From assembly GCA_007117755.1 (NCBI GenBank), contig SKFY01000039.1, positions 1 through 39,683 on the forward strand: a DNA stretch of 39,683 nt. The letters are read 5' to 3'. The stretch is from Candidatus Woesearchaeota archaeon (GTDB lineage Archaea; Nanobdellota; Nanobdellia; Woesearchaeales; 21-14-0-10-32-9). A program made the position numbers and the translations under genes. Shown here in pieces: positions 2,424 through 39,683 of this stretch. Position 1 is the stretch's first letter, and every line of letters begins with the position of its first letter. The notes under the pieces were generated by a model, which had not been told where the DNA came from, made no database searches, and worked only from the letters and a program-made list of their open reading frames with translations.

Positions 2424-2424
2424 A

Positions 2425-2514
2425 CGAACCTGGAGGGATTCGAACCCTCGACCTATTGCTAACTCCATATTAATTTAGGAGGCAATCGCGCTATCCAGAC
2501 TGCGCCACAGGTTC
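2425..2514 (-). tRNA. tRNA-Arg (anticodon CCU) with a 15-nt intron at the canonical 37/38 position
   Basis: On the reverse complement the acceptor is GAACCTG/CAGGTTC and the D arm GCGC..GCGC. The anticodon stem ATTGC/GCAAT encloses CTCCTAA plus 15 extra nt. The T arm is GAGGG-TTCGAAT-CCCTC and the discriminator is G. Intron GGAG can pair with CTCC of the anticodon loop. Confidence 0.85.
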
Positions 2515-2528
2515 AACACACAAAAAAG

Positions 2529-5018: not shown

Positions 5019-5399
5019 ATGATAACTTTACAATTCATACCATATAAAGAATTAGAAAATTTACCTAGTGAAAAAAGAATTAATAAAATACTTAGAGCAG
5101 TTAAATCAGATAAAATAGTATTGTTAGAAGGAAGTCTTGAAAGTAAAGAAGAAACTGATTTGATAAGTAGAACTATGGAACAAATAAACGAGAGTTTTAC
5201 AGGTATAGAAATAAGTGTTGTTAAAAGCGAACATTTAGAGACTAATTTTTTAGATAGAATAAGAAGTAAAATCGTCAGGCTATTAACAGGTAATAGACAT
5301 GGTTTTACCATTATAGGACCTGCAAAGATAGTGAAGGAAATAAAACAAGATCCTGGAAAGATACAGCTTCTCACAAATATTCCTTCTAATAAAAAATAA
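5019..5399 (+). CDS. Conserved archaeal hypothetical (DUF2073-like by operon context)
   Basis: 126 aa, starting 2 nt after the GTPase stop. I recall the GTPase/DUF2073/Zn-ribbon gene order from other archaea, but no diagnostic motif could be verified by eye. Confidence 0.4.
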   Translation: MITLQFIPYKELENLPSEKRINKILRAVKSDKIVLLEGSLESKEETDLISRTMEQINESFTGIEISVVKSEHLETNFLDRIRSKIVRLLTGNRHGFTIIGPAKIVKEIKQDPGKIQLLTNIPSNKK

Positions 5400-5411
5400 G
5401 GTGAATAAATA

Positions 5412-5795
5412 ATGCCCCACCAATGTGTTAAGTGCGGAGCTCTTTACGGAGACGCAAGCGAAGCTATTATTAAAGGTTGTAAGGATTGCGAATCTAAATT
5501 GTTTTTCTATGTCAAACAAGATTATTTAGATAAAGCTAAAGAACGCACTAGTAATTTGACTAAAGTAGAAAAGAATCAAATAGAAAAAGATGTTTATGAT
5601 ATAATAGGAGATGAAATAGATAAAGACATACCAGTAGTTTTAGATATTGAAAGCATAAATATAATTAAACCAGGAAAGTACGAGTTAGATTTAGTTAATC
5701 TTTTTAAGAAAAAACAACCTTTAATTTATAAGTTAGAAGATGGAAAATACGTTGTTGATATAATGGAAAGTTTTAGTAAGTTCTCAAAGAAATAA
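5412..5795 (+). CDS. Zn-ribbon protein (DUF2072-like)
   Basis: N-terminal CVKCG...CKDC four-Cys ribbon followed by a charged C-terminal domain. It is the third gene of the GTPase triad. Confidence 0.5.
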   Translation: MPHQCVKCGALYGDASEAIIKGCKDCESKLFFYVKQDYLDKAKERTSNLTKVEKNQIEKDVYDIIGDEIDKDIPVVLDIESINIIKPGKYELDLVNLFKKKQPLIYKLEDGKYVVDIMESFSKFSKK

Positions 5796-14673: not shown

Positions 14674-15378
14674 GTGAATAAGGTGCTTTCTAAAGTGTTT
14701 ACTAAAAAAAAAGTTAAGTTATTATTATTGGAAAGCTTGTTAATAGTTGTAGCTGTGTACGCAATTATTTTTTATCTTACAGATGTATTGGATCAGGAAA
14801 GATTTAAAGAGTTAGAGAATCAATTAACTGTTTCTTCTTTAAAACAAGAATCTAGATATGTTATGAATGATTTTTTCTCTACTTTTAGTGAGAATGAATG
14901 TGAATTAATGCGAAATAGTATTTATGAAGAATATGATTATGTTAAGGATTTGTTCAGCGACATAAATAGGTATGTCATGTCAGGCTTGGGAAGAAACGAG
15001 CCTAGATACTCAGTTAATAAAAGAGAATATACTTTAAACCAATTAGATATGCTTAATATGATTAATTTTTATAATGAAGGATGTGAAGATGCGAAGATTT
15101 ACCCCTTATTATATTTTAACGACGGGGAGTCAAGCGGTATAGATACACAAGGACTTATTCTTAGTCAGTTTTACGAGGAAACAACCGATGTTATTGTTTT
15201 AATATTTGATAAAAATTATGAAGATGAACAATTACTTGTGAAACTTAGGAATTATTACAATGTCACCCAAGCACCTTTTATTGTTTTTGGAGATAAAAAT
15301 ACTAAAGATTTTACTAATAATGATATAGTGTATTTGAGAACATTGAGAAATGAATATGATAATATGAAAAATATTTAA
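14674..15378 (+). CDS. Single-pass membrane protein, paralog of 16641-17276
   Basis: N-terminal basic stretch plus TM (LLLLESLLIVVAVYAIIFYL), then a coiled segment and an alpha/beta-looking ectodomain with two Cys. The start is uncertain (GTG at 14674; other GTGs at 14683 and 14695). Confidence 0.5.
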   Translation: MNKVLSKVFTKKKVKLLLLESLLIVVAVYAIIFYLTDVLDQERFKELENQLTVSSLKQESRYVMNDFFSTFSENECELMRNSIYEEYDYVKDLFSDINRYVMSGLGRNEPRYSVNKREYTLNQLDMLNMINFYNEGCEDAKIYPLLYFNDGESSGIDTQGLILSQFYEETTDVIVLIFDKNYEDEQLLVKLRNYYNVTQAPFIVFGDKNTKDFTNNDIVYLRTLRNEYDNMKNI

Positions 15379-15387
15379 TGAAAAAAA

Positions 15388-16644
15388 ATGGTACTTAACG
15401 TCTTATTACACACGGTTATATTCACAGGATTTTTCTTAGCAGTATTTTGGTTAGTGGCCTTGTTAAATGTTAAGGAGTATAAAAGACGTATAGAGAATTA
15501 TCCTTCTGTTACTATAATAATACCTGCATATAATGAAGAAGAAGGTGTGGGCAGAACTATAGAGTCTTGTAAAAATTTGGAGTACCCTGGAAAGTTAGAT
15601 ATTCTTGTTGTTAATGATGCTTCTAAAGATAGAACGCTTGAAAAAATAAAGAAGTATAAAGGTATTAAGATACTCGATAATAAAAAAAATGAAGGTAAAG
15701 CTTCAGCTTTGAATAAAGCGTTGAAAGAAGTTAAAACAGAATACTTCGCAGTGATGGATGCTGATTCTTTAGTAGATAGATACGCTTTAAGAAATGCTAT
15801 AAAATATTTTATTATTAAGGATGGAGATGAAGTTGGAAGTGTAATGACTAAGTTAAAGCCGGAGAATGAAAGTGGTAATTATTTAGAAAGAGTTCAATTA
15901 ATAGAGTATATGTTTGTGGGTTTAGTAAGGTATTTGTCTGCTTCTTTAAGACTTTTACATATAGCACCAGGAGTTATGAGTGTTTATAAAACAAGAGTTG
16001 TTAAAAAATTAAAAGGTTTTGACAAAACTAATTTGACAGAGGATTTTGAGTTAGCCGTTAGATTAAGAAAAAATGGTTATTTGATTAATTACGCACATGA
16101 CAGCTTAGGATATACTAAAGTACCTAATAATTTTAAAGTTTTTTTAAAGCAAAGACTAAGATGGGGTAGGGGATTTTTTAGAACTATATTTAAACATAAA
16201 GATATAATATTTAATAAAAAGAAAGGTTTGTTCGGGATTTATGAATTCCCTATGAATATAATAAGTCCTTTATTGTTTTTCGTAGCGGTTTTTATACTGA
16301 CCATAAATATTGTTAGAAGCGTCTACGAGTTTTTATTTAAATTAATAGTCACGCCAGACGTTATAAAATGGTTCGAGTTTAATTCTTTCAGGGAGATGAT
16401 GCTTTCTTTTAATTCCCTAATATCTTTACCTATACTCGCGAGTTTATTATTGGTATTATTGTTTATTTATTTCGTGTTTAAATTTTACGATCACAAATTC
16501 TTTGAAAGAGACAAATTTAAAAAAGTAATAGCATTAGTTACTTACGTATTCATTTATAGCTATATATACGTTTATTTATTTTCAAAAGCGTTTTACATGG
16601 AAGTTGTGAATAAAGAATATGATTGGGGTACTAAAAAAAGATGA
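15388..16644 (+). CDS. Processive family-2 glycosyltransferase (NodC/chitin/cellulose/PNAG-synthase-like)
   Basis: IIIPAYNEE, VVNDASKD, MDADS, TEDFEL and QRLRWGRG (QxxRW) motifs, plus one N-terminal and several C-terminal TM helices. Confidence 0.85.
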   Translation: MVLNVLLHTVIFTGFFLAVFWLVALLNVKEYKRRIENYPSVTIIIPAYNEEEGVGRTIESCKNLEYPGKLDILVVNDASKDRTLEKIKKYKGIKILDNKKNEGKASALNKALKEVKTEYFAVMDADSLVDRYALRNAIKYFIIKDGDEVGSVMTKLKPENESGNYLERVQLIEYMFVGLVRYLSASLRLLHIAPGVMSVYKTRVVKKLKGFDKTNLTEDFELAVRLRKNGYLINYAHDSLGYTKVPNNFKVFLKQRLRWGRGFFRTIFKHKDIIFNKKKGLFGIYEFPMNIISPLLFFVAVFILTINIVRSVYEFLFKLIVTPDVIKWFEFNSFREMMLSFNSLISLPILASLLLVLLFIYFVFKFYDHKFFERDKFKKVIALVTYVFIYSYIYVYLFSKAFYMEVVNKEYDWGTKKR

Positions 16645-17276
16645 CTAAAAAATTTTATACAAAAAGTAGAAAGACATTATTAGTGACTTTATTATTAGTG
16701 AGTTTTATAATGGGATATATGAGTGGATGGCTAACTTCTGAACAGACAATTTCTGATTTAGAATTAGAAATAGAAAGTCTTAACTTAGATATAAGATCTG
16801 TAAATCAAAGAGTTCAGTTTTCTAAATATTTCGGGGATATATGTGAGCCAGAGCACATAGATTTTATAGGTCGTCGTATATACGAAACAGGTATAGAATT
16901 AGACCGTCTTGAAAGAAGAGGTTTGGAAGACACTAATGATTATATTATTTTAAAACAAAGACATAACGTTAACCAAGTATTGTTTTATACAGAGCTTAAA
17001 AAGTTTAAAGAAGAATGCGAATATGATAAAAACATAATTTTGTTCTTTTTTGACGGGTCAGAAGGAGAAGAAGCAAGAGCGCAAGGAGAAGAAATAAGTA
17101 TTGCGATAGAAGAAAGAGATGTTATTGTTTTACCTATGGATTATGGATACACAAACTATATAAGCTATTTCTATGACTACCACTCTATAAATGAATTACC
17201 AGCTTTAGTTATTAATTACGATACTACACTAGAAGGATTTAGTGAAGCTGATGTTATAGAGACTTATTTAAAATGA
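16641..17276 (+). CDS. Single-pass membrane protein, paralog of 14674-15378
   Basis: Same layout as 14674-15378, with alignable blocks: Cys1 context, KEECEYD vs NEGCEDA, ILFFFDGSEG vs PLLYFNDGES, DVIVLPMD vs DVIVLIFD, ELPALVINYD vs QAPFIVFGDK. ATGA overlaps on both sides. Confidence 0.5.
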   Translation: MTKKFYTKSRKTLLVTLLLVSFIMGYMSGWLTSEQTISDLELEIESLNLDIRSVNQRVQFSKYFGDICEPEHIDFIGRRIYETGIELDRLERRGLEDTNDYIILKQRHNVNQVLFYTELKKFKEECEYDKNIILFFFDGSEGEEARAQGEEISIAIEERDVIVLPMDYGYTNYISYFYDYHSINELPALVINYDTTLEGFSEADVIETYLK

Positions 17277-17974
17277 AACTGTCTATTATCATACCTGCTT
17301 ATAACGAAGAATCAGTTTTGAGAAGTAGTTTGCAAAAAACCAAGGATTATTTTAAACAAAAAAAGTATTCTTATGAAATAATAGTTATAGATGACGGTAG
17401 CGAAGATAAGACAAGAAAAATAGCTGAAGAAGAAAAAGCTGTGCTTAATAAGAAGAGAACTAATAAAGGAAAAGGATACTCTGTTAAAGAAGGAGTAAGA
17501 CTGGCTAAGGGAGATTATATTCTTTATATGGATGCTGATATGTCCACCCCCCTAGAAGAGCTAAAGATTTTTTTACAGTACATAAAAAAATATGATATTG
17601 TTATAGCTTCAAGAAAAACTCCTGATTCTTTAGTAAAAACTAGGTTTTACAAAAAAATTTTGGGAAGAATAAGCCATTTACCTATAAAATTATTATTAGT
17701 TAATGATATTAAAGACACACAATGCGGTTTTAAATTATTTAAGAAAGAAGTGGCTAAGAGACTTTTTAAAATGCAAAAGATAATGAGATGGGGTTTTGAT
17801 TTTGAAATTCTTTTTTTAGCCCAAAAAAATGGTTACGTAATTAAAGAGAAGGGAGTTAGATGGGTGGAGGATAAGAATAGTAAAGTTAAATTAATTGATT
17901 ATCCTAAGACTATGATTGAGCTTTTTAAAATAAAATATTATGATTATAAGGGTTACTATGATACAAAAAATTAA
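17273..17974 (+). CDS. Family-2 glycosyltransferase, dolichyl-phosphate sugar synthase (Dpm1/GtrB-like)
   Basis: SIIIPAYNEE, VIDDGSEDKT and MDADMS (DxD) motifs; 233 aa soluble catalytic domain. Confidence 0.8.
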   Translation: MKLSIIIPAYNEESVLRSSLQKTKDYFKQKKYSYEIIVIDDGSEDKTRKIAEEEKAVLNKKRTNKGKGYSVKEGVRLAKGDYILYMDADMSTPLEELKIFLQYIKKYDIVIASRKTPDSLVKTRFYKKILGRISHLPIKLLLVNDIKDTQCGFKLFKKEVAKRLFKMQKIMRWGFDFEILFLAQKNGYVIKEKGVRWVEDKNSKVKLIDYPKTMIELFKIKYYDYKGYYDTKN

Positions 17975-19526
17975 GGAATATGTTAAAGCAAATAAGTATT
18001 TGCTAATGCTTTTCTTATTTAGCACGGCATATTTTCTTTATCAAAAAAGCATGGGTAATTCATGGGATTTTAATGCTTTTGTTTTAAACGCGGAGTATTT
18101 GTTTGGAGACGGATTATATTTCGAAACTTTAAGACCTCCTTTAATGCCAGTTATTATAGGATTAATAAGTTTGTTAACAACTACCCTGGTTGCTGAGTAC
18201 ATATATATTATTTTAGTAGCAGTACTTTTTTTTATATCAAGTGTTTATTTGGCTAAGGCGTTAGGGTTTAACGAGGTTATTTATTATGGTTTGTCACTTA
18301 ACATTTTTGTATTGACGTGGGGCTTGGTTAATGGAACAGAATTGTTAAGTTATTCTCTTATGCAATTAATGATTCTTTTTTTAGTTAAAGAAAGAATCAC
18401 CGGAGGTTTTTTTCTTGGCTTAGCATCCTTAGCAAGATACAGTAACCTAATCTTTTTCCCTTTCTTGTTATTACAAAAAAATATTAAGAAAATAGTTCTT
18501 TCTTTATTTTTATTCGGCTTAACACTTATTCCATGGTTAACGTATAATTTTATTAAAACAGGTAATTTTTTAACGAGTATAGCAGATCAATACGCAAATA
18601 ATATTTTATTCAGACAAAGTTTTTTAAATAATTCTTATGATAATTACTTAATAGATTTTTTATCAGTGACTAATTTTTTATTAATACCTGCTTTGATAGG
18701 TATAGGAGGCTTTTTGTTTTTAATTTATAATTATTTAATTTTTAATAAAAATAAAAGCGTTAGGAATATTTGGGATTTTATCATAAAGAATAAAGTAAGT
18801 TTGGTTATGTTAATAATACTTATTTATACAACTTATAGTTATTTAGGAATACCTTTGAAACACGCGCGTTATTTGTTTTTAAATTTATTACCACTTACTT
18901 ACTTTGCGTATAAAGGCTTAGAAATAGTAAGTAATTTTTTTAAAACAAAAAAGTATTCTTTTAAGAAAATAATGACATACTTATTTTTAATCATCTTATT
19001 ATTAAATGTGACTAGTTTAGTATATTTAGAAAGTAGTAATACTATTTATTATGAAAGCATATTGGGATACGAGTATATGCGTGATAAAGTAGAGGAGTTA
19101 GGAATTAGTGATTGTGAGTTAATGTCTAATGTCTGGGTCCCCCTTAATTATTTGGGATTGAGTAGTCAACCATTCCCACGGGATTTTCAGATAAATAGTA
19201 AGTTAGATGAAGGTTATAATCTTTTAATAGTGCATTCAGTAGGCGACCCCGAGTATAGCAGTGATAAGGATTTTTTAGAAAGCTTTCCTATTTTATACCA
19301 AGCGCCACATTACATTATTTTAGGAACGGATAATTGTAAAGAAAGATATGTTTATGATATTACCTACACTGAAGAGATTAAAAACATTTATTTAGAGAGA
19401 GAAAACATTGAGTTAAATATTAATCCTTGTTTTTTAATGTTTAGAAATTATGGCTTATTAGAAAAAACTTGTAATTTCTTTAATATGAAAGGATTTGAAA
19501 AAGATGAAAACAGAGAGATATTATGA
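17940..19526 (+). CDS. Polytopic GT-C-type glycosyltransferase candidate (PMT/ArnT-like)
   Basis: 528 aa with ten or more hydrophobic segments in the first ~370 aa and a soluble C-terminal domain. Position between a Dpm1-like GT2 and GtrA supports the call. The real start may be the ATG at 17958 (MIQKIKEY). Confidence 0.55.
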   Translation: MIIRVTMIQKIKEYVKANKYLLMLFLFSTAYFLYQKSMGNSWDFNAFVLNAEYLFGDGLYFETLRPPLMPVIIGLISLLTTTLVAEYIYIILVAVLFFISSVYLAKALGFNEVIYYGLSLNIFVLTWGLVNGTELLSYSLMQLMILFLVKERITGGFFLGLASLARYSNLIFFPFLLLQKNIKKIVLSLFLFGLTLIPWLTYNFIKTGNFLTSIADQYANNILFRQSFLNNSYDNYLIDFLSVTNFLLIPALIGIGGFLFLIYNYLIFNKNKSVRNIWDFIIKNKVSLVMLIILIYTTYSYLGIPLKHARYLFLNLLPLTYFAYKGLEIVSNFFKTKKYSFKKIMTYLFLIILLLNVTSLVYLESSNTIYYESILGYEYMRDKVEELGISDCELMSNVWVPLNYLGLSSQPFPRDFQINSKLDEGYNLLIVHSVGDPEYSSDKDFLESFPILYQAPHYIILGTDNCKERYVYDITYTEEIKNIYLERENIELNINPCFLMFRNYGLLEKTCNFFNMKGFEKDENREIL

Positions 19527-19969
19527 AGCTGAAAAACGAATTAAAAAAAATTAATTTTTTCAATCCCCTAGATTGGTATAGGTTTTTTAGTAAAATAAGA
19601 TTTGTTAGTTTTTTATTAGTAGGCGGAACAGGAGTATTGCTTAATTTGACAATAGTTACTGTTTTAACAGAGTTTTTTTTAGGAAGAGAATTATATTTCT
19701 ATAGTTATTTAATAGGCTTATTCAGTAACTTAACATATAATTTTATTCTATTTACAAAAATAACTTTCAAAACTAAGAAGAACCATAAAAAAAGATATGT
19801 GGTTTATATTACGTATAGCTTAATTATGAGTTTTATACAAGCAATAACCGTGAGGCACATAGTGAACGTGGTAGGAGTAGATTTTTATTTAATAGTTATA
19901 GCCAGCATAATTTTTGTTTTCTCAATTATTAACTTTATGAATTTTAAATTATGGCTTTTTAAAGATTAA
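19523..19969 (+). CDS. GtrA-family small membrane protein (putative lipid-linked sugar translocation)
   Basis: 148 aa with four TM segments and the FLLVGGTGVLLNL signature near the N-terminus. Confidence 0.7.
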   Translation: MKLKNELKKINFFNPLDWYRFFSKIRFVSFLLVGGTGVLLNLTIVTVLTEFFLGRELYFYSYLIGLFSNLTYNFILFTKITFKTKKNHKKRYVVYITYSLIMSFIQAITVRHIVNVVGVDFYLIVIASIIFVFSIINFMNFKLWLFKD

Positions 19970-26113: not shown

Positions 26114-26128
26114 AAAGCTTTATAAATA
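26114..26128 (+). promoter_or_regulatory. BRE/TATA of the P1 unit
   Basis: AAAGCTTTATAAATA, with its TTTATAAA core 24 nt upstream of the ATG at 26151. Confidence 0.45.
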
Positions 26129-26150: not shown

Positions 26151-27317
26151 ATGAACAAAAAAGGTCAAGATTCAACAGGTGCCGCAAGCATAATTTTTGT
26201 AATTACAGCCATATTAGTTCTTTATATTCTTTTAATACCTTCTGACGCTAGAGATTCTTTATTAGACGATAATCTTATTAGTAACGGAAATGATAATGGA
26301 AAAGAGGAAGATAGAGAGTACGTATTGGATGAACACGTGGGGAGATTAGATTATTTGGCTTCTTCAGAGAAGACTTATCCTATAAATTCTTTTATTATGC
26401 AAACTAAAACAGAGGCTAATATTTTAGTATCTAGAAGTGGTTTGAGCGTTATCAAAAGTGTTTTTGAAGATGAAAAAGCACGTGTTGATTTCCAAGCCAA
26501 TCCTGAATTAACAGGGGATTTGACTTTAGCTTTTAACATCGAGAGATCAGGCGGTATTTTAAGTATCACTCTTAATAATAACTTAATATTCAGAGGAGAG
26601 TTGAGTAGTGGTAATTCTCCACATATATTAATTGAGAATAGGCATTTACAAAGACATAACGAGTTAGTTTTTGAAGTTTCTAGTCCAGGATTCGTGTTTT
26701 GGAGAGTTAACCGTTATGATTTAACAAATATTAATGTAGTGGGAGACGTAACGGACGATAGTATGAGTAAGAGTAGTCAGAGTATTAATATTAGAAGTGC
26801 TGATTATGATTTATTTGATACTGCAAGACTTAGATTTTTACCAGTTTGTGATGATTCAGTTAGTGGTTTGAGTATTAGCATAAATAATAGAGAAGTTTTT
26901 AGAGGAAGCCCTGATTGTAATGTTTTTAACCATATAGAGTTTAGTAAAGATATTGTTTACCCAGGTGTTAACTTTTTAGATTTTAAAATTAGCAGAGGTC
27001 ATATTTTAATGGATCGTGTGGAGATTATAAGCAGTCTTGACGCTCCCGAACCTCCTGTTTATTATTTTGAAATTGACGAAGAAGAGTATTTTAGTAATGG
27101 AGAGTTGAACAAGTACGTTATTGCAGGTATAGAGTTTACAAATCCTGATAGGAAAAGATTAGAATTATTTGTGAATGGCAGGATAATAGGTATTACTACA
27201 ACAGATGTTAAAGTTGAAAGAGATATTTCTGAATTTGTAGAGCCAGGAATGAATTCTATAGAGATTAGACCTAGACAAGATCTTGATATTTCTAGTTTGA
27301 AAGTTTGGTTAGAATAA
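26151..27317 (+). CDS. Exported protein P1: pilin-like or signal-anchor N-terminus plus three internal beta-rich repeats; unknown family
   Basis: The N-terminus is MNKKGQ followed by a hydrophobic stretch (AASIIFVITAILVLYILLI). There are three roughly 80-100 aa repeats with a shared LSI(T/S)(L/I)NN..(I/V)FRG and ..N.(L/I)(E/D)F pattern. TTTATAAA lies 24 nt upstream. Confidence 0.6.
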   Translation: MNKKGQDSTGAASIIFVITAILVLYILLIPSDARDSLLDDNLISNGNDNGKEEDREYVLDEHVGRLDYLASSEKTYPINSFIMQTKTEANILVSRSGLSVIKSVFEDEKARVDFQANPELTGDLTLAFNIERSGGILSITLNNNLIFRGELSSGNSPHILIENRHLQRHNELVFEVSSPGFVFWRVNRYDLTNINVVGDVTDDSMSKSSQSINIRSADYDLFDTARLRFLPVCDDSVSGLSISINNREVFRGSPDCNVFNHIEFSKDIVYPGVNFLDFKISRGHILMDRVEIISSLDAPEPPVYYFEIDEEEYFSNGELNKYVIAGIEFTNPDRKRLELFVNGRIIGITTTDVKVERDISEFVEPGMNSIEIRPRQDLDISSLKVWLE

Positions 27318-27378
27318 CTAAAAAAAAAGAGTGTTATTTTAAAAAAATTAATAAAGACTTGATTCGTATGTTTAATTT

Positions 27379-28851
27379 ATGGCTTCAGAAAGTAGTGCGA
27401 GTAACGGCTTCACATTATTATTTATAGTAGCTATAGTGATTCATTTAATAGATATATTCTTGTTTAATTTCGGGACTAGCACAGGCATACTTTTTGCGAG
27501 AGCAACTATTTATTTAGTGGCTTTATCTTTGCCTTTTTATTTATCCATAGAAGGAGAAGCAGAACATAAACTAAAAGCTTCTTTGATACCAACAGGTATA
27601 GTTGTTTTGTTTTTCCCTATTTTTTTATGGATTATTAATTTAGCACCCGTTGATCATACTGTGCAAGAAACATTACATTTTTTAATGTTTATAATACCTA
27701 TTTGGCCTATTTATTTAGCTTTAAATTCGGGTTCGGGAGCTTTACAAACTTTGTTAAAAGCATATATATTCTTATTAGTTGCTGGAGCAATAGTAGTAAT
27801 TATAGGCTTATACGGTAGTGAAATTCCACAAACACCTGGATTAGATATTGGAAGAGTTGATTTTGAAAGAGCATGGACTGGTTTTAGAGAAGTTGTTATT
27901 GACAATACTTTTCAAGGAATAAGTAGTATAATAAGTGGTGCTAGAACCGAGATTGATACCAGGATTAACGAAAGTTTAGGTAGAGGTTATCAAGGAGATG
28001 TGGAAAGAGTTAGTTCTGATACTGGAATAACTATACAAAGACCTAATATTAGGAGTAGTTATAGCGAAGATGATATTATAAGAATATCAATTCCTGTCAG
28101 GGTTAGAACTTTCAAAGATAATGATACCGATATTGCTTTTGAGTGTAGCGCTACTAGTGGAAGAACAAGGGTTTTGGGTAACGTAACACCTAACATTGAA
28201 ACTTTTAGAGGTTTTGATACTAGAACAGTTTTTTGTGAATTCGAAAATCTTAGTAGGGGAACTTATCGTTTTGAGTTCACCGCTAATTTTGAATTTGAAA
28301 CGTGGGGTTATACCGAGCTTTATTTTGTAAGTGCCACGACTATAGAACAGTTATTCGAAGGAGGGGAAAGAATAGATGCTAGAGCCTTCGGTATTCCCAG
28401 GATGCCTAGAACAACATACACTACAGGCCCTGTGTTTTTAGGAACAAATAATAGTCAGGAAATGCCTTTAGAAGTTCATAGTGATAGAGACACTTATATT
28501 TATTTAGACTGGGGTGTTGAGAACGCTAATAGGCTATACGGAGATATTAACAGGATTAATCATTTTGAAGTGAGTTTACCTAGTGTTTTTAATTTGGATA
28601 GTGATAGGTGTAATTTACCTATTAGTAGCAGTGAAAGCGACACATCCGTTTCAGATTTATACACTTTACACAGATTTGAATATGACGGCACCGGGAGGAT
28701 TCTTAGTTTGGGTTGTGAAGTCACAATCCCTGTTAGTCAAAGAGGCGTTATTGTTAGTGATACTATAGGGAGTCTTACTGAAGTTACTGTTTTGTCAAAG
28801 GTTAATTATGATTATAGCTTAAGAGCTTTGGATACTATTAGGGTGACGTGA
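27379..28851 (+). CDS. Membrane protein P2: five TM helices plus a ~340-aa Cys-pair ectodomain; unknown family
   Basis: Five hydrophobic helices fall within aa 10-146. The ectodomain has two modules: FECSAT..VFCEF..FEFETWGYTELYFV and DRCNL..LGCEV..VNYDYSLRALDTIRV. Both resemble the C-terminal module of P3-P5. Confidence 0.6.
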   Translation: MASESSASNGFTLLFIVAIVIHLIDIFLFNFGTSTGILFARATIYLVALSLPFYLSIEGEAEHKLKASLIPTGIVVLFFPIFLWIINLAPVDHTVQETLHFLMFIIPIWPIYLALNSGSGALQTLLKAYIFLLVAGAIVVIIGLYGSEIPQTPGLDIGRVDFERAWTGFREVVIDNTFQGISSIISGARTEIDTRINESLGRGYQGDVERVSSDTGITIQRPNIRSSYSEDDIIRISIPVRVRTFKDNDTDIAFECSATSGRTRVLGNVTPNIETFRGFDTRTVFCEFENLSRGTYRFEFTANFEFETWGYTELYFVSATTIEQLFEGGERIDARAFGIPRMPRTTYTTGPVFLGTNNSQEMPLEVHSDRDTYIYLDWGVENANRLYGDINRINHFEVSLPSVFNLDSDRCNLPISSSESDTSVSDLYTLHRFEYDGTGRILSLGCEVTIPVSQRGVIVSDTIGSLTEVTVLSKVNYDYSLRALDTIRVT

Positions 28852-28854
28852 TAA

Positions 28855-29889
28855 ATGAAGAAGATAATACTTATGATTATGATACTAGGATTTTTAGTAA
28901 TCGCTGGTTGCGAACCTAGTCATCAAACTAGTCAATACGTAGGTACTAGAGGTGTGGATTTTGATTTTAGTACTAATATGCCACCTGACCAAGTTTATGT
29001 TAACGACGTTGTTTATTTCGGATTTGATGTTTTTAACAGAGGAGCACATGGCTTAGTAGGAGGTAAACAAGGTGTTTTAACTCTTGATTATAACCCTCTC
29101 TATTTCGAAATAGAAGGTACTCAACCAGATATTTTTTCTTTAACCGATCAGTCTAATAGATTATACACGACTTTTAACGTTGATGGGAGAAGAACGAGTT
29201 ACACACAAGGAGAAAAAACAGTGGTTAATCTTGGTTTGTTAAGAGCACAACTTCCAGGAACTAGAGAATCAGTGAATACTGCTTTGAACGCGAACATATG
29301 TTATCCTTATCGTACTTTCTTATCAGATGTTGTGTGTATAGACACTAATGTTTTTGAAGACGTCACAGATCCTTTGTGTAGAAGCACTCCCAAGACGTAT
29401 ACAGGGGGGCAAGGAGCTCCTATAAGTGTTTCTAGAGTTAATCCTTTAATGATGCCTATACGTGTAATTGAAGATGAAACCGAAACCACAGTTAGTATTG
29501 TTGATGAACACGGCCAATTCTGGGGTGTCGAGTCAGAAGTGGTTAGTACTAGACATGTTGTGTTAAAGCCTGTTTTTGAAATCCATATAAGGAACGTGGG
29601 CGGAGGAACTCCTTTTTATTCAGACGATAGAACAATTTTAGATGCTTGTCTTCGTAGTGATGAAACACGTCAGTTAAACAAGGTTTATGTAGAAGCTGAC
29701 TTGCAAGGTTTAGAACTTGATTGCACTCCTAGAATTGTTGATTTAAAAGATGGTATTACTCGTTGTGAAGTGAGAGATGATGATTTATCCGCTACTAGCA
29801 GTAGTTATAACGCTGTTTTAAATGTTGAATTAGAGTATTATTATGTGGATAGTCAAAGTAAAAGTGTATCTATTAGAAGATTAAGATAA
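28855..29889 (+). CDS. Lipobox protein P3, member of a paralogous triad; unknown family
   Basis: The signal peptide ends in VIAGC (lipobox-like). It has six further Cys (149, 161, 175, 265, 290, 304). Motifs are ICYPYRTF..VVCID..LCRS..GQGAPISVSR, IRNVGGG and the C-terminal ELEYYYVDSQSKSVSI. It starts 3 nt after the P2 stop. Confidence 0.65.
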   Translation: MKKIILMIMILGFLVIAGCEPSHQTSQYVGTRGVDFDFSTNMPPDQVYVNDVVYFGFDVFNRGAHGLVGGKQGVLTLDYNPLYFEIEGTQPDIFSLTDQSNRLYTTFNVDGRRTSYTQGEKTVVNLGLLRAQLPGTRESVNTALNANICYPYRTFLSDVVCIDTNVFEDVTDPLCRSTPKTYTGGQGAPISVSRVNPLMMPIRVIEDETETTVSIVDEHGQFWGVESEVVSTRHVVLKPVFEIHIRNVGGGTPFYSDDRTILDACLRSDETRQLNKVYVEADLQGLELDCTPRIVDLKDGITRCEVRDDDLSATSSSYNAVLNVELEYYYVDSQSKSVSIRRLR

Positions 29890-29902
29890 CTCACTAAATA
29901 AG

Positions 29903-29910
29903 TTTTTTTT
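29903..29910 (+). terminator. Oligo-T terminator after P3
   Basis: A T8 run lies 13 nt after the P3 stop codon, upstream of the P4 promoter. Confidence 0.45.
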
Positions 29911-29926
29911 AACTCGTGACTAATAA

Positions 29927-29940
29927 AAAGCTTTAAATAG
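29927..29940 (+). promoter_or_regulatory. BRE/TATA of the P4-P5 unit
   Basis: AAAGCTTTAAATAG ends 25 nt before the ATG at 29966. It is nearly identical to the P1 promoter. Confidence 0.45.
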
Positions 29941-29965
29941 TGTAGTTGTTAATAACTCTTATATT

Positions 29966-31258
29966 ATGGTTAATAATCGTGTAATCCTAGTGTTTTTACT
30001 GTCTTCAGTACTATTTTTAGCAGGGTGTATGCCCTTTGGCACTGATAAAGCTGCTAGGTGCGCCGATGATTTAGTAAATTGTAATTTTTATACAGGTAGT
30101 GAAGGCGTGGAGTTCAGACTACAAAATCCTCCCAGAACTCTTTATTTCCATTCTTATGACGCCCACCCAACAGACCCCGTGGGTAATAGAGTGGATTTTG
30201 ATATTAGAGTTGCTAACAGAGGAGCTAGTGAGACCTACGGAGCTACTTTTTTAACAGGTTTCGGAAGTAATTTTAGAATAATAAGACCTGACGGTACCGA
30301 AATTAGTAAGAGAGGAGTTCTGGATAGTTGTACATTTAATATAGGTGTGGGTGACGGAAGCATATTTTCAAGTTTCGCAATTAGATGTGAAGGTTTAGAT
30401 TTTCAAAGAAGCGACTGGGGAACTACTTTTAATGCTAGATTCAGCACTTTAAACGATATATTCGGATGGAACTTACCAGATGGACAAATAAGGATATTTG
30501 ATGACGGAGACGGATTAGATTTCACATTAGGACTTGAAGGTATGAGGTTAGATTTATATTATCACGGTAAAATATTATTAGGAATGATTAGTCATATAAA
30601 CTTAGATTATTACGGAGGAGCGGAGTTTTGGTTAAGAGGAGATAATCCTGAATACCCAGGAGGAGAGGAAGATTTCCAGACTTATACTGTTCAAATGTTA
30701 GGTAATTGGCCTGCAGGAACAGATAGGTATACCATGAATTATCAAGTAAAAAGTTGTTATGCTTATACTACTTTTGTAAGTCCTTTAGTTTGTGTAGATC
30801 CCAGTCCTTATTCAGGAGATGATAAGGTTTGTAGAACTAATCAAGCGGTTAATATGGGAACTCAAGGAGCTCCAGTGGCTGTTACTAGAATGGAACAGTA
30901 TAATACAGGAAGAACTTTAGAACTGATATTTACAGTGAGAAACGTCGGCGGAGGACAAGTTTGGGAAATAGGAAGCCTTGAAAGATGCAGTCCTTATTAT
31001 CCTGATACGAGAATAACCAGTGGTCATAAAAACATTATTTATGTAGGATATGCAGAGATTGGAGGAGTAGGTTTGAGATGTGACAGAAGAGAAATAAGAT
31101 TAAATGAGAGAGGAGAAGGTACTTTCCGCTGTACTTATAACTTGGCGGATTCAGACACCTTAGTAGGAAGTGCTTATGAAGCTCCTATTAGGATGGAGCT
31201 TTGGTATGGTTATGAAAAATCAATAACTAGATCTTTAGAAATAATGAGGGCTAGTTAA
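29966..31258 (+). CDS. Lipobox protein P4, member of a paralogous triad (with a ~110-aa insertion); unknown family
   Basis: The signal peptide ends in FLAGC. Motifs are SCYAYTTF..LVCVD..VCRT..TQGAPVAVTR, VRNVGGG and the C-terminal MELWYGYEKSITRSLEI. It has four extra Cys in two pairs, and its own TATA-like box 25 nt upstream. Confidence 0.65.
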   Translation: MVNNRVILVFLLSSVLFLAGCMPFGTDKAARCADDLVNCNFYTGSEGVEFRLQNPPRTLYFHSYDAHPTDPVGNRVDFDIRVANRGASETYGATFLTGFGSNFRIIRPDGTEISKRGVLDSCTFNIGVGDGSIFSSFAIRCEGLDFQRSDWGTTFNARFSTLNDIFGWNLPDGQIRIFDDGDGLDFTLGLEGMRLDLYYHGKILLGMISHINLDYYGGAEFWLRGDNPEYPGGEEDFQTYTVQMLGNWPAGTDRYTMNYQVKSCYAYTTFVSPLVCVDPSPYSGDDKVCRTNQAVNMGTQGAPVAVTRMEQYNTGRTLELIFTVRNVGGGQVWEIGSLERCSPYYPDTRITSGHKNIIYVGYAEIGGVGLRCDRREIRLNERGEGTFRCTYNLADSDTLVGSAYEAPIRMELWYGYEKSITRSLEIMRAS

Positions 31259-31264
31259 GGAGGT
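31257..31264 (+). promoter_or_regulatory. Shine-Dalgarno site of P5
   Basis: AAGGAGGT lies 8 nt upstream of the ATG at 31273. Confidence 0.6.
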
Positions 31265-31272
31265 AAAATAAT

Positions 31273-32232
31273 ATGAAAAGAACAGTATTAATAATGTTAC
31301 TCGTGGCGGTTTTATTAGTTGCGGGTTGTGAAGGAGACAGCGAAACTAGGTTAAGAGCAGATCCTTTTATAGGAGGAACAGAAGGTTTACAAGCTCGTTA
31401 CATAGAAGGTTATCCTCCATCTAGCGTATTAGATGGTGGAGAGGACGAGTTTAGCGTGATTGTAGAGTTAACTAATAAAGGAGAAGCTGAAATTGAACCT
31501 CAAAACGTTAAAGTTACTTTAGGAGGATTCTCAGCAAGACACTTCAACAAAGGCATTGAAGACTTAACAAGGTTTAATTCTGAGCTTATAGAAAAGAATC
31601 AGAAGAATCCTGATGGAAGTATTATAGAATCTTTCCCTTACGAGATAGAATTCGAAGGATTTTCTTACCAAGATAGGATTCAAGGAAATCAAGAATATCC
31701 TTTCAGAGCAGAAATTTGTTACGGTTACCAAACTAATGTTGTTTCAAGTGTTTGTGTAAAGGAAGACTTTAGAAGAGATACTGCCGATAGGGATATATGT
31801 ACTGTTAATAGTAGAAGAACAGTTCATAATAGCGCCGCTCCTGTTCAAGTTACTAACTTACAGCAAACAGCTGCTAGTACAGGCTCTGCAAGAGTCACGT
31901 TTAAAGTTGAAAACGTGGGTAGAGGAGATGTTTATAAGGTTGGTGCTGAAGAAACTTGTAATGTAGATAGTAGAGATATAAACATGGTACATGTTGAAAT
32001 TAGTGGTTTTGAAACCGGTGCTGGTGAAGAAGTCGATTGTAGAGGCTTAAGAGATGGCGATAGTACTAGTGGATTCTTAAATATTGGTGGAGACACAGGT
32101 GGAGAAGTTAGTTGTACTATTTCTTTCGCTGATGGTACCAGATCTGCTAGGATTCAAAACTTCGATATAACTTTAGACTACGACTATAGACAAACTATTA
32201 CTAGAAGTATCGTTGTAGAACACGGTTCTTAA
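31273..32232 (+). CDS. Lipobox protein P5, member of a paralogous triad; unknown family
   Basis: The signal peptide ends in LVAGC. Motifs are ICYGYQTN..SVCVK..ICTV..SAAPVQVTN, VENVGRG and the C-terminal LDYDYRQTITRSIVV. A strong SD, AAGGAGGT, lies 8 nt upstream. Confidence 0.65.
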   Translation: MKRTVLIMLLVAVLLVAGCEGDSETRLRADPFIGGTEGLQARYIEGYPPSSVLDGGEDEFSVIVELTNKGEAEIEPQNVKVTLGGFSARHFNKGIEDLTRFNSELIEKNQKNPDGSIIESFPYEIEFEGFSYQDRIQGNQEYPFRAEICYGYQTNVVSSVCVKEDFRRDTADRDICTVNSRRTVHNSAAPVQVTNLQQTAASTGSARVTFKVENVGRGDVYKVGAEETCNVDSRDINMVHVEISGFETGAGEEVDCRGLRDGDSTSGFLNIGGDTGGEVSCTISFADGTRSARIQNFDITLDYDYRQTITRSIVVEHGS

Positions 32233-33888: not shown

Positions 33889-34104
33889 ATGGTTACTACA
33901 ATTCAAATCTCGGACAAAACAAAAAATAAGTTGAATATTATTAAATCAAATACTAAAAAGACTTATGACGAAATAGTTTCATCTCTTTTAGAGCATGAAG
34001 AAAAGTTATTGTTAAAAGAGCAAATAAGTAGTTATTATTCTAAGTATGCCGATGAAGATTTAGAAGAAGTTAATGAGTGGAAATATACCGAGGTAAGAGA
34101 TTGA
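33889..34104 (+). CDS. Antitoxin of a type II TA pair (short ribbon/VapB-DUF217-like N-terminus)
   Basis: 71 aa. TIQISDKTKNKLNIIK...TYDEIVSSLL resembles the archaeal putative-antitoxin family usually found with PIN toxins. The C-terminal tail is acidic. Its stop overlaps the toxin start (TTGA). Confidence 0.55.
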   Translation: MVTTIQISDKTKNKLNIIKSNTKKTYDEIVSSLLEHEEKLLLKEQISSYYSKYADEDLEEVNEWKYTEVRD

Positions 34105-34415
34105 AACAAGGAGAAATATACTTGGTTAACTTAGATCCTGTAGTTGGAAGTGAGCAGGCTAAAACAAGACCTTGTGTTATTATATCCACCGATATCGTAA
34201 ATGATTTTTCGAATACTTTAACTATAGCCCCATTATCTTCTAAAATTAGAGACAAGCCTTTTCCTTTTCACATTAAACTAGATAAAAAAGGTTTGATAAA
34301 AGTAGAGCAGCTTAGAACGATTGATAAGAAAAGAATTGTGAAGCGAGTTGGTAATGTAGATTTTGAAACTAAAAATAAAATCAAGAAAGCTTTAGCGCTT
34401 TATTTTGATTTATAA
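34101..34415 (+). CDS. mazF: MazF/PemK-family toxin (endoribonuclease)
   Basis: GEIYLVNLDPVVGSEQAKTRPCVIIS is the classic PemK/MazF N-terminal block. I prefer the TTG start at 34101, which has GAGGT 6 nt upstream and a TTGA overlap. The track start is the GTG at 34077. Confidence 0.8.
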   Translation: MKQGEIYLVNLDPVVGSEQAKTRPCVIISTDIVNDFSNTLTIAPLSSKIRDKPFPFHIKLDKKGLIKVEQLRTIDKKRIVKRVGNVDFETKNKIKKALALYFDL

Positions 34416-37374: not shown

Positions 37375-38052
37375 TTAACTCCAACCACTTATGAAAAGCT
37401 CATGTACATCAGGACACGCTGTTTCCAAACCATTTACAACGTCTGATAAAACCTCAGGGTTTTGAGCTGGGATCATTTCAGCTTCAGCCATATTTGCGAA
37501 TCCGTAAGTTCTTGCCATTTCATCCGCTTCAGCTCCTTCAAGAATGCTTATTCCCGGGTCGCAAGTCATGTGTACGTTCATCTGAACATACCTGTCATAA
37601 GCAGATGCTGTAAGATCTATCTCTGCAGGAGTATAATCTCCTAAATCAATTGTTTCTGTCATGCCTTCGCCCATACCTGTTACCCAGTCAATGTATTCAG
37701 GACAATTTTCCGTTAATAACTCCAAGTATTCTTCAGAATCTTGAATGCCTTGGTATTTTTCTCCTTCTAACTCTGCTTCTCGCATATTAGCATAACCATA
37801 CCTTTGTGCGAATGCATCTAATTCATGATCCTCCATGAACGCCATGTCTTCTTCACCATAAACTAGACATGTTAAATCGGCTGAGAATCTTAGATAATTA
37901 TCGCGGTCTGACGAAGCGACAGTCTCTGTCTCGACAGGTTCGTAATCTTCTAAAACTTCCTCTCCTTGTAATTCTTGATCTGATACTTCACTTGCGCAAC
38001 CAGTAACTATTAGCATTACTAATGCGATTAATAAATAATTTCTAACTTTCAT
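37375..38052 (-). CDS. Ultra-acidic lipobox protein with an internal two-fold repeat; unknown family
   Basis: The start is the ATG at 38052 with GAGGTG 6 nt upstream. The signal peptide ends in IVTGC. Two roughly 80-aa repeats each carry ..TC.., YG(Y/F)ANM.EAE and ..CP(E/D).. Only 2 Lys in 225 aa. Confidence 0.65.
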   Translation of the reverse strand: MKVRNYLLIALVMLIVTGCASEVSDQELQGEEVLEDYEPVETETVASSDRDNYLRFSADLTCLVYGEEDMAFMEDHELDAFAQRYGYANMREAELEGEKYQGIQDSEEYLELLTENCPEYIDWVTGMGEGMTETIDLGDYTPAEIDLTASAYDRYVQMNVHMTCDPGISILEGAEADEMARTYGFANMAEAEMIPAQNPEVLSDVVNGLETACPDVHELFISGWS

Positions 38053-39683
38053 TATTAACACCTCTGCTTCTTTTCAAATACTCTCTTCCTGCAAAGAAAA
38101 CAACTCCTAAGATCACCAGGATTATTATCGTCCAAAGCAACCAATTAGAACTTCTTTCTTCTTCCTCTAACTCTTCTGTTTCATCAACAATTTCTTCCTC
38201 TTCCACTACTTCTATTATGAAAAGTTCAACTTTTTCATCAAATATATTAACGATTTCTATTAATACATCGTTGTTTCCATCATTGTTAATATCTAATTTC
38301 CAAGTATCTCCTTTAGCTAATGTCTTATTTTGAGGGTTTAAAGCCAAAGTTACTGTAGCGTTTTCTTCACTAATATTTTGAATAGTTATGGAATAATTTT
38401 GACCGCTTAGATTAATAATTAATTCTTGTTCTTTTGTTAAATTTATAAAAACACCTTCTTTTAAATCATCCAATATAATTTGTTGATACTTTACTAAATC
38501 ATCTTCTTCCTCAACTTGTCGTGATCTTCTTCTACTGAGTGGAAGTAAGGTTTCTTCTTCCTCCACTTCAGGCTCTACATAAATCAACCAGACATATTCA
38601 TCAATATTTTCCTGCCATGCTAATAGAGGATAACCATTATTTAATTCCAAATTTATTGAAGTTATATTCCATTCTGGCAGGTATGAATTAATGTTTTTCA
38701 TTTCTTCTGTTGTGAGTCCTATTCCATCACCACTAGAAGCATGCCCTGAATCATCTATATCCCAATAACTATTTTCAACCTGACCAGTTATTCCACTTAT
38801 TCCTGAAAACCCTCCGCTATTTGTTCCCGTGGCATTGGAGTTCGTCCAACTGTTATTAATTCTGGCTGGAGAGTCACCTATTCCTCCTATAAATCCTCCT
38901 GCTTGCTCATTATTTGCATGTACTTTAACATCTATAGAATAACTATTTCTTATTTCTCCTACAATAGCTGAAAGAGTAGTCATACTTCCAATTACTCCTC
39001 CAACCCTGTACTCTCCTGTTACTTCCCCTCCAATTACTCCAACTTCTTGAACCAAACCATTCCTTCTTATAGAGCCAGATATTGTTCCTACTCTTTCATC
39101 TCCTGTTATGTTAGGTTGTATTAAAATAAAAGAGTTAACTCCCGCGCCTGTACTATCTGTTATATCTCCAAATAGTCCAACAGCTGTTTGGGAAGGTCTG
39201 TTTATGTATAGATAGCTGATGGTTTTGTTATTTCCTGAAAATTCGCCTGTATAAGCATTATTTAATTCTCCTATTGGCTCAAATCCAGCTCCTTCATTCC
39301 AGTTCTGAGTGTAACTGGCATTAATATCATTGATTAAAACATAATCAGCTGATAAGTCATCCTGCATACACTGCAAGTCATGAACGTTGCTTATTTCATA
39401 CGGCTCGCTATGTCCGCTCCACCAATTATTACAATCTGGTGAGTTCGAAAAGTTTTCCACATGTAAAGTTCTTAATTCGGTAAAATTTTCAGTACCAAAA
39501 CTATCGTTCACATAAGCATAATATTCATAAGTTCCAATTGAAAGGTTTTCTTTATTTACTAAGAATTGCCATCTATCCAAATCTATCTTTTTTAGGTTTG
39601 AAACATAAACTTTTTGAATTTCCTCCTCAGCTAGAGCTCTGTTCCAAATACGCAGTTCATCTACACTTCCATCCGATAAAGGA
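38042..39683 (-). CDS. Large surface protein (LamG-like end, GLUG-like repeats, beta-sandwich, acidic stalk, C-terminal TM anchor); 5' end outside the window
   Basis: The frame stays open to the right edge. Upstream of the track start it reads ..SVDELRIWNRALAEEEIQKVY, a LamG/concanavalin-like signature. Repeated VGLFG/VGGVIG/GGFIGG motifs (GLUG-like) and YWDIDDSGHASSGDGIGLTTEEMK follow. The C-terminus has an E-rich stalk, the TM WLLWTIIILVILGVVFFAG and a basic tail. Confidence 0.65.
   Translation of the reverse strand, partial: PLSDGSVDELRIWNRALAEEEIQKVYVSNLKKIDLDRWQFLVNKENLSIGTYEYYAYVNDSFGTENFTELRTLHVENFSNSPDCNNWWSGHSEPYEISNVHDLQCMQDDLSADYVLINDINASYTQNWNEGAGFEPIGELNNAYTGEFSGNNKTISYLYINRPSQTAVGLFGDITDSTGAGVNSFILIQPNITGDERVGTISGSIRRNGLVQEVGVIGGEVTGEYRVGGVIGSMTTLSAIVGEIRNSYSIDVKVHANNEQAGGFIGGIGDSPARINNSWTNSNATGTNSGGFSGISGITGQVENSYWDIDDSGHASSGDGIGLTTEEMKNINSYLPEWNITSINLELNNGYPLLAWQENIDEYVWLIYVEPEVEEEETLLPLSRRRSRQVEEEDDLVKYQQIILDDLKEGVFINLTKEQELIINLSGQNYSITIQNISEENATVTLALNPQNKTLAKGDTWKLDINNDGNNDVLIEIVNIFDEKVELFIIEVVEEEEIVDETEELEEEERSSNWLLWTIIILVILGVVFFAGREYLKRSRGVNNES

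Follow-up and report, generated by a model that had tools for sequence, protein, structure and literature searches.

We describe a block of five adjacent genes, named P1 to P5, in a Woesearchaeota genome, that of a very small and probably symbiotic archaeon, and we lean towards reading their products as one membrane-anchored, hetero-oligomeric surface complex that is specific to this lineage and carries a lectin-like arm. The block occupies positions 26151-32232 of a stretch of 39,683 nucleotides (nt) from Candidatus Woesearchaeota archaeon (GCA_007117755.1, contig SKFY01000039.1, forward strand), hereafter called the window, and consists of five co-directional open reading frames (ORFs) on the + strand. 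Woesearchaeota rank with the most abundant DPANN archaea and also with the most diverse. To our knowledge, no member of Woesearchaeota is available in pure culture, and we know of no molecular account of their envelope or of their contact with a host. The P1-P5 module is apparently specific to Woesearchaeota-type (DPANN) archaea, where it appears to be lineage-wide and single-copy. Judged by sequence comparison, its products constitute three protein families uncurated so far, namely P1, P2 and P3/4/5.

The conservation of the block was followed through a set of loci comprising 15 from a scan with P4 over one genome per GTDB species, five metagenome loci found with a 12-sequence P1 alignment, and five contexts of distant homologues. 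Block order was scored over the collected loci by tblastn and family hidden Markov models. All 15 loci from the GTDB-species scan lay in Woesearchaeota-type metagenome-assembled genomes (MAGs). The order and strand P1-P2-P3-P4-P5 were identical in 17 complete blocks besides that of the window; one four-gene variant lacked P5 (L016/L017), the block of L024 contained an additional P5 copy, and the remaining incomplete blocks all stopped at a contig edge. The original prediction, made from the letters of the window, had tied the idea of a module to synteny in related genomes, and every related locus that was informative retained the gene order. The block lies between top6A and the gene for replication factor C (RFC) in the closer lineages; in the distant lineages, Pelota stands upstream instead of top6A, and extra genes may intervene between the block and RFC. 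Because the upstream neighbor changes from Top6A to Pelota while the block persists, the block is a self-contained unit that moves together. P1-P5 are 22-50% identical between loci, compared with 70-80% for Top6 and RFC there, and by this measure they are fast-evolving, as is usual for surface proteins. The genomes sampled come from a single clade, and common descent therefore accounts for some of the synteny. Five of the records (L001, L006, L007, L012 and L014) are titled 'uncultured Methanosarcinales archaeon' yet carry the Woesearchaeota module, with Top6 and RFC 67-94% identical to those of the window, and their label looks wrong. A link of the module with the glycosyltransferase cluster upstream in the window (14.7-20 kb) was considered and rejected, since the cluster does not accompany the module in other loci.

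In the window, the block stands directly downstream of top6B/top6A, and the gene for the RFC small subunit follows it in convergent orientation. The gaps P1-P2, P2-P3, P3-P4 and P4-P5 measure 61, 3, 76 and 14 nt, and the genes are arranged in two units, P1-P2-P3 and P4-P5 (Table 1). This two-unit layout is conserved across loci. Among 16 loci, nearly all have a box like promoter box 1, (A/C)(G/A)TTTA(A/T)ATA, 25-45 nt upstream of P1, and nearly all have a TTTA(A/T)ATA box in the P3-P4 spacer, 25-45 nt ahead of the P4 ATG. The P3-P4 gap is consistently the widest (median 67 nt), and the coding regions of P2 and P3 abut or overlap (median gap -1 nt). The original prediction had reported five co-directional genes after top6A, gaps of 61, 3 and 14 nt inside the units, two similar promoters with a T8 terminator between the units, and a strong Shine-Dalgarno sequence for P5, all of which were recovered, with the same coordinates and the same gap lengths. 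It had also reported no ATPase, secretin, sortase or prepilin peptidase, and among the genes of the 40-kb window we likewise found no pilus ATPase, platform protein, prepilin peptidase, secretin or sortase. Pfam and NCBIfam scans of the window genes found no enzymatic or motor component among P1-P5.

Table 1. Genes of the P1-P5 block, their predicted expression signals, and a further surface-protein gene in the window (aa, amino acids; BRE, transcription factor B recognition element)
Feature	Position	Strand	Remarks
P1	26151..27317	+	388 aa
P2	27379..28851	+	490 aa
P3	28855..29889	+	344 aa
P4	29966..31258	+	430 aa
P5	31273..32232	+	319 aa
Promoter box 1, BRE/TATA-like, AAAGCTTTATAAATA	26114..26128	+	22 nt upstream of P1 ATG; heads P1-P2-P3 unit
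Promoter box 2, BRE/TATA-like, AAAGCTTTAAATA	29927..29939	+	26 nt upstream of P4 ATG; heads P4-P5 unit
T8 run, candidate archaeal oligo-T terminator of unit 1	29903..29910	+	14 nt past P3 stop codon
GGAGG, Shine-Dalgarno-like	31259..31263	+	9 nt upstream of P5 ATG
Partial ORF, C-terminally anchored surface protein	38042..39682	-	at least 546 aa, off window end; short basic tail; weak GLUG motif

None of P1-P5 reached a Pfam or NCBIfam threshold. The sole family hint was CARDB (PF07705) on residues 194-256 of P5, where the score of 14.6 bits (E 0.04) fell short of the cut-off of 22.7. No threshold was reached in Pfam scans of 71 P1, 52 P4 and 13 P2 relatives, sequence-profile searches of the PDB with P1, P2 and P4 returned no relatives, and literature searches found no description of the P1-P5 module. 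A P4 profile run against 5.8 billion proteins recovered 192 homologues, all named 'hypothetical protein' and labeled as Woesearchaeota or 'archaeon' only, and no Pfam domain was found on the 120 of these homologues that were listed. An exhaustive HMMER search with P1 yielded 688 clusters at 50% identity (278 at E <= 1e-30), nearly all of them full-length, at ~390-400 aa. A word-indexed database search with P2, even as a profile, returned one or two relatives and was probably swamped by low-complexity words. The proteins had been called family-less, which stood in the sense that no curated family was matched but failed for the folds, which are recognizable as jelly rolls in P1 and as Ig/CARDB-like sandwiches in P4 and, by homology, in P3 and P5. 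The profile searches also gave no confident match of P1-P5 to a characterized family of the kind that would have undone the idea of a module. A viral or mobile origin was considered and rejected: the comparison of P4 with BFVD gave generic beta-sandwich noise only, and the module is chromosomal, sitting amid housekeeping genes on contigs of up to 938 kb.

P1 begins with the short basic sequence MNKKGQ followed by a hydrophobic helix, as had been noticed before. Its relatives start with basic-(G/A/S)-Q, followed by about 5-9 small residues and a hydrophobic helix ending LPPxER. All 12 close orthologues have Q6, and basic-(G/A/S)-Q occurs in ~80% of 71 relatives, several members lacking the Q. 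The AlphaFold2 (AF2) model built from 71 sequences, with a predicted local distance difference test score (pLDDT) of 92.8, comprises a helix at residues 9-39, a disordered linker at 40-50 and three beta domains; the transmembrane (TM) helix starts at residue 9 (to 28/39). The domains, at ~55-182, 183-300 and 301-388, are galactose-binding-like jelly rolls that constitute internal repeats (hhalign 97% and 89%), contain one invariant Cys pair (C233 and C256), and have strands with the pattern '...h-N-G-x-x-h-G...G-x-N-x-h-x-h' typical of this fold. Against the PDB, Foldseek gave 42 matches to the model at E <= 1e-3, many with probability 1.0 and with E values down to 4e-8, including the jelly rolls of GH35/GH2 beta-galactosidases, BcsB, AftD, PNGase F and reelin. 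About 10 of the 71 relatives gave weak Pfam matches within the same clan (Glyco_hydro_2_N, BetaGal_ABD2, CBM-like and CBM_35; best E 9e-5, others ~1e-3); the window P1 itself matched no Pfam family. On this model, P1 is anchored by a single pass through the membrane, carries three jelly rolls on a flexible tether and is not a pilin-fold protein, so that of the earlier label 'pilin-like' the N-terminal motif survived and the fold did not. The lectin-like arm would bind carbohydrate. In a subset of P1 proteins (L011 5040-6719, L022 5526-7229 and many representatives of ~560 aa), an insertion of ~170 aa separates jelly rolls 2 and 3, and it is Cys-rich in L011. A relationship between P1 and P4 was also considered, and the comparison found no link.

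P3, P4 and P5 are, by their sequences, true paralogues, as had been predicted (BLASTP E ~4e-13; hhalign 99.7%, E 1.6e-26). Each starts with a basic n-region, a hydrophobic h-region and a lipobox, which reads VIAGC in P3 (Cys19), FLAGC in P4 (Cys21) and LVAGC in P5 (Cys19). The signal peptides ending in a lipobox-like AGC that had been attributed to these three proteins proved to be a family trait: the strict lipobox [LVI][ASTVI][GAS]C was found in 70 of 78 family members (P3 10/12, P4 49/52 and P5 11/14), and the other 8 of the 78 have near-matches in which the Cys is always retained. Lipid anchoring of P3-P5 is predicted from this motif. P5 has a Cys-rich connector with three invariant Cys (C149, C161 and C176). 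P3 is the most size-variable of the three, with 314-892 aa in other lineages; the orthologue in L014 (2294-4972) has 892 aa, and that in L004 (5785-6819) contains an in-frame stop, owing either to loss of function as a pseudogene or to faulty assembly. Modeled by AF2 from a 52-sequence alignment (pLDDT 84, predicted TM-score 0.77), P4 shows stacked beta-sandwiches and, around residues 110-230, an insert of lower confidence. Foldseek searches of the PDB and BFVD matched the model with generic tandem Ig-like proteins only, at TM-scores of no more than 0.17, for example integrin alpha calf/thigh legs, macroglobulin domains of alpha2-macroglobulin and complement proteins, cohesins and transglutaminase barrels. 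On this model, P4 is a stack of Ig/CARDB-like beta-sandwiches, and homology extends this fold to P3 and P5, so that a familiar fold class is represented here by an undescribed family.

P2 contains five hydrophobic segments (residues 11-29, 37-55, 68-86, 97-115 and 125-143) followed by a beta-rich ectodomain of ~340 aa, in agreement with the five TM helices and the ectodomain of this size described originally. Among 23 sequences, four ectodomain Cys (256, 286, 411 and 446) and the terminal strand Y477-x-Y479 are invariant, and the membrane residues D25 (TM1), P80 (TM3), and P107, W109 and Y112 (TM4) are invariant or near-invariant. Most P2 orthologues have an additional N-terminal region of 80-260 aa. 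It is highly charged, with a net positive charge in most cases, resembles a coiled coil or zinc ribbon in part, and has no signal peptide. Given these charged extensions without a signal peptide, the N-terminus would lie inside the cell and the ectodomain outside. The extension (L002-L015 and L019-L025) is sequence-variable; in L007 it has zinc-finger repeats of the DnaJ type (CxxCxGxG), and there was a single hit to DUF7895. The P2 proteins of the window, L001 and L026 lack the extension. At L016 (10001-12913), a locus without P5, the P2 relative P0123 has 970 aa, including ~320 surplus C-terminal residues. P2 was also compared with P3-P5 in three ways, as full, domain-cut and enlarged profiles (23 and 21-67 sequences). 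The profile-profile comparison gave E 0.006-0.3 with a probability of no more than 6%, and the alignment was restricted to the last ~17-40 residues (the Y-x-Y strand) and was no better than that of d1-vs-d3 inside one lipoprotein. A paralogy of P2 with P3-P5 was therefore rejected as unproven. The Cys-pair module proposed as common to P2-P5 thus found support for the homologous P3-P5 but none for P2, of which only the terminal Y-x-Y strand aligns.

The sequence evidence that P1-P5 are exported is strong, consisting of the lipoboxes, the Cys complement of the ectodomains and selection against N-glycosylation sequons. The ectodomain Cys are invariant and even-numbered in all five proteins, with 2 in P1, 4 in P2, 6 each in P3 and P5, and 8-10 in P4 (lipobox Cys not counted). 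In the window, P1, P3, P4 and P5 contain zero N-x-S/T sequons compared with ~11 expected. The observed-to-expected ratio (O/E) was 0.06 for the P4 family (52 homologues, 9 observed and 156 expected), 0.17 for P5, 0.36 for P3 and 0.53 for P1, counted over related sequences that have diverged to ~35-40% identity. In P4, the control motifs gave O/E values of 0.98 (reversed), 1.16 (D-x-S/T), 1.02 (Q-x-S/T) and 1.70 (N-x-A/G), and the value for 18 cytoplasmic window proteins was 0.88. The P2 ectodomain, at 1.19, is not depleted. The partial surface protein at the end of the window (Table 1) has 17 sequons compared with 7.3 expected (O/E 2.3); it is probably N-glycosylated and is an S-layer-like candidate. 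The presence of this sequon-rich protein means that the organism appears to use N-glycosylation. Because only exposure to the external oligosaccharyltransferase selects against sequons, their depletion in P3-P5 and P1 argues that these proteins are exported. It further suggests that the surfaces of the lipoproteins P3-P5, and partly that of P1, are kept glycan-free by selection, which need not hold for the surface of P2.

On these grounds, we propose a putative working model in which P1-P5 would be subunits of a constitutive complex located at the outside of the cell membrane. Two similar strong TATA boxes would drive transcription, one that of P1-P2-P3 and the other that of P4-P5. P2 would serve as the integral-membrane platform. 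It would have five TM helices with an invariant Asp within the membrane, an N-terminal tail that lies in the cytoplasm and is variable, and a two-part beta ectodomain open to glycosylation. The lipid-anchored and disulfide-stabilized P3-P5 would pack on P2, on each other or on a partner surface, through contacts that must lack N-glycans. P1, tethered through one helix and a flexible linker, would project three lectin-type jelly rolls that bind carbohydrate; the glycans bound could belong to the cell's own envelope or to a partner or host. The complex may then act in adhesion or envelope organization, possibly as a sugar-binding or attachment device. Several points weigh against this proposal. 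Jelly-roll and Ig-like folds also serve pure protein-protein contacts, and whole-chain Foldseek TM-scores do not exceed 0.25, the matches being at the level of domains. Moreover, export is judged from motifs and statistics, the platform role of P2 is proposed from its predicted topology, and the physical assembly of P1-P5 is something we infer.

We considered whether the module might instead be the S-layer itself, or a stalk or anchor tying a glycosylated S-layer to the membrane, with P1 gripping S-layer glycans and P2-P5 as the base close to the membrane. A lineage-wide and apparently single-copy module between housekeeping genes, headed by strong promoter boxes, would fit such a role, Ig-like domains are typical in archaeal S-layers, and the sequon-rich surface protein of the window could be the glycosylated partner. 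However, archaeal S-layers are typically heavily N-glycosylated, whereas the lipoproteins of the module are nearly sequon-free (O/E 0.06 for P4, 0.17 for P5 and 0.36 for P3). Solved S-layer proteins were not matched by sequence or by fold. Additionally, archaeal S-layers are made of one or two proteins (PMC5744192), compared with five distinct ones here, and S-layer genes are separately annotated and highly expressed in Woesearchaeota MAGs (PMC11606122). We therefore regard this explanation as unlikely, and the lattice that the original prediction had listed among its options is weakened by the lack of sequons in the lipoproteins and by the S-layer genes annotated separately in Woesearchaeota MAGs.

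A bolder version of the surface complex can also be imagined, in which P1-P5 would be a lineage-wide, near-essential host-contact apparatus: P1 would read host-envelope glycans with its triple lectin arm, the glycan-free P3-P5 would clamp the surfaces of the two cells, and P2, by means of its intramembrane Asp and its variable cytoplasmic tail, would form or gate a conduit through which host metabolites are taken up. If true, it would be an intercellular attachment and uptake machine of a new kind, unrelated to pili, secretion systems and S-layers; we consider this a long shot.

The N-terminus of P1 raises another explanation, according to which P1 is a class III (prepilin-type) signal protein that is processed and presented by type-IV-filament machinery encoded elsewhere, as in the Sulfolobus bindosome, with P2-P5 as accessories. 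The basic-(G/A/S)-Q motif with its hydrophobic helix, frequent among the relatives and with Q6 fixed in the close orthologues, speaks for it, and binding proteins with class III signals outside pilus loci are reported to be widespread in archaea (bioRxiv 10.64898/2026.04.22.720090). However, the P1 model shows a linker and three independent jelly rolls rather than a pilin head, the (G/A)-Q is not universal, the hydrophobic stretch begins 6-9 residues later, and no ATPase, platform protein or peptidase was found within +/-10 kb of the block in the window or in L016 and L023-L026. We find this explanation very improbable.

P2 could alternatively be the active component, that is, a channel, transporter or intramembrane enzyme working on the three lipoproteins, with the others as its substrates or capture partners; the module would then serve uptake or processing and would not be a structural or adhesive complex. 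The invariant D25 within the membrane and the conserved P/W/Y motif in TM4 (21-23 of 23 sequences) would suit an active protein, as would the position of P2, always immediately upstream of a lipoprotein gene and often overlapping it, and DPANN archaea rely on imported metabolites. However, P2 bears no similarity to transporter, peptidase or transferase families in Pfam, NCBIfam or PDB profiles. It has a single invariant acidic residue, and neither an energizing ATPase nor an alpha/beta substrate-binding-protein fold accompanies it. Moreover, lipoproteins are far commoner than P2, so P2 is not a general processing enzyme. We attach very little weight to this possibility. That P1-P5 are mere neighbors, five independent secreted or anchored proteins such as assorted adhesins that have stayed adjacent by descent because the genome is compact, gains from the sampling of one clade, in which ancestry alone predicts some synteny and the flanking Top6 and RFC are also often kept, but is made hardly credible by a block that persists through neighbor replacement and gene insertions around it, that holds its order, strand, overlaps and internal promoter position despite 22-40% identity, and in which sequon treatment differs consistently by subunit (P2 versus P3-P5).

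The window has a G+C content of ~31%, and its other genes are mostly housekeeping ones (GatB, NMD3, Trm1, OapB/OapC, TruD, transketolase, ProRS, RIO kinase and a Ski2-like helicase), together with the glycosyltransferase cluster. This glycosylation cluster, at 14674-19969 (+), encodes a GtrA-like protein and two GT2 glycosyltransferases, one of which gave processive-synthase-like hits. It also encodes a protein of 528 aa (17940-19526) that has ~7 TM helices and matches no Pfam family. The genes for OapB and OapC are adjacent at 5019-5795 (+) (Pfam E 1e-19 and 5e-21), so a replication origin may be near; the cumulative GC skew has no turning point within the window. A 92-nt tRNA at 2424-2515 (-), scored at 58 bits by Rfam, overlaps the annotated start of ORF 1770-2468; the 4-base anticodon loop in the ARAGORN reading is an artefact, and this is probably an archaeal tRNA with an intron. 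Downstream of the block, a type II toxin-antitoxin pair at 33889-34415 (+) comprises a MazF/PemK-like toxin (34077-34415, Pfam E 1.5e-30) and a small antitoxin-like ORF that overlaps it (33889-34104), with weak VapB-antitoxin and DUF7557 hits. Another uncharacterized lipoprotein, an acidic protein of 228 aa at 37375-38061 (-), has the lipobox LIVTGC, an apparent internal duplication and no Pfam match.

With this analysis, five 'hypothetical proteins' become a defined target, a clade-wide and self-contained block with two folds modeled and with anchoring and topology predicted. If the complex mediates adhesion or envelope organization, it offers a handle for fluorescent or affinity probes that find hosts, for the interpretation of densities in cryo-electron tomography, and for comparing how archaea with reduced genomes build a surface without the classical machineries. 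If it is merely a structural accessory, a well-delimited set of protein families is still gained for database curation. Additionally, the purging of sequons provides a cheap computational marker of surfaces that stay bare, i.e., candidate interfaces.

The surface complex that we favor can be compared with several known systems. P3-P5 share 'x-V-x-N-x-G-x-G' strands with CARDB (PF07705) and Ig-like domains, and P4 has the same fold class. However, the scores lie below the curated thresholds, 0 of 52 P4 relatives match CARDB and 1 of 52 hits Integrin_A_Ig_3, and the three-Cys connector and terminal Y-x-Y strand of P3-P5 are without a described counterpart. The anchoring signal of P3-P5 matches that of the archaeal lipobox lipoproteins, which depend on AliA/AliB in Haloferax volcanii (PMC12462473); lipoproteins and AliA are reported to be prevalent in DPANN, AliA with gaps (PMC12462473). 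The mature domains of P3-P5, in contrast, are unrelated to those of the characterized lipoproteins, which are mostly substrate-binding proteins, so the likeness concerns the anchoring route and not the function. The N-terminus of P1 shows in part the pattern of archaeal type IV pilins and bindosome proteins, but the pilin fold is absent from the model and no filament machinery is nearby. Its modeled ectodomain is instead made of three domains of the type seen in galactose-binding-like jelly rolls and carbohydrate-binding modules (GH35 8qqh, BcsB 9fmt/4hg6_B; probability 1.0, E 4e-8 to 1e-4). Like BcsB, P1 is predicted to be a membrane-tethered extracytoplasmic stack of carbohydrate-binding-type domains. 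However, BcsB alternates two jelly rolls with two flavodoxin-like domains, whereas P1 has jelly rolls only and no catalytic domain; the BcsB anchor is C-terminal and that of P1 N-terminal; and BcsB has the BcsA synthase adjacent to it, whereas no GT2 synthase lies in or beside P1-P5 in any locus examined.

In concept, and by analogy only, the module recalls the Sus-like surface glycan-binding lipoproteins of Bacteroides (SusE/F and SGBP-B, 7kwb) and the Csc/WxL clusters of Gram-positive bacteria (WxLIP, 9i1y), which are likewise operons of several anchored beta-sandwich proteins, lipoproteins and lectin-like ones among them. The proteins of each presumably cooperate on the cell surface to capture glycans or to adhere, and SGBP-B and WxLIP are among the weak Foldseek matches of the P4 and P1 models. 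P1-P5 differ from them in belonging to a single-membrane archaeon and in having no sequence homology, TonB transporter, glycoside hydrolase, sortase or WxL motif. Taken together, P1-P5 combine common folds with known anchoring routes in a lineage-specific operon of surface proteins.

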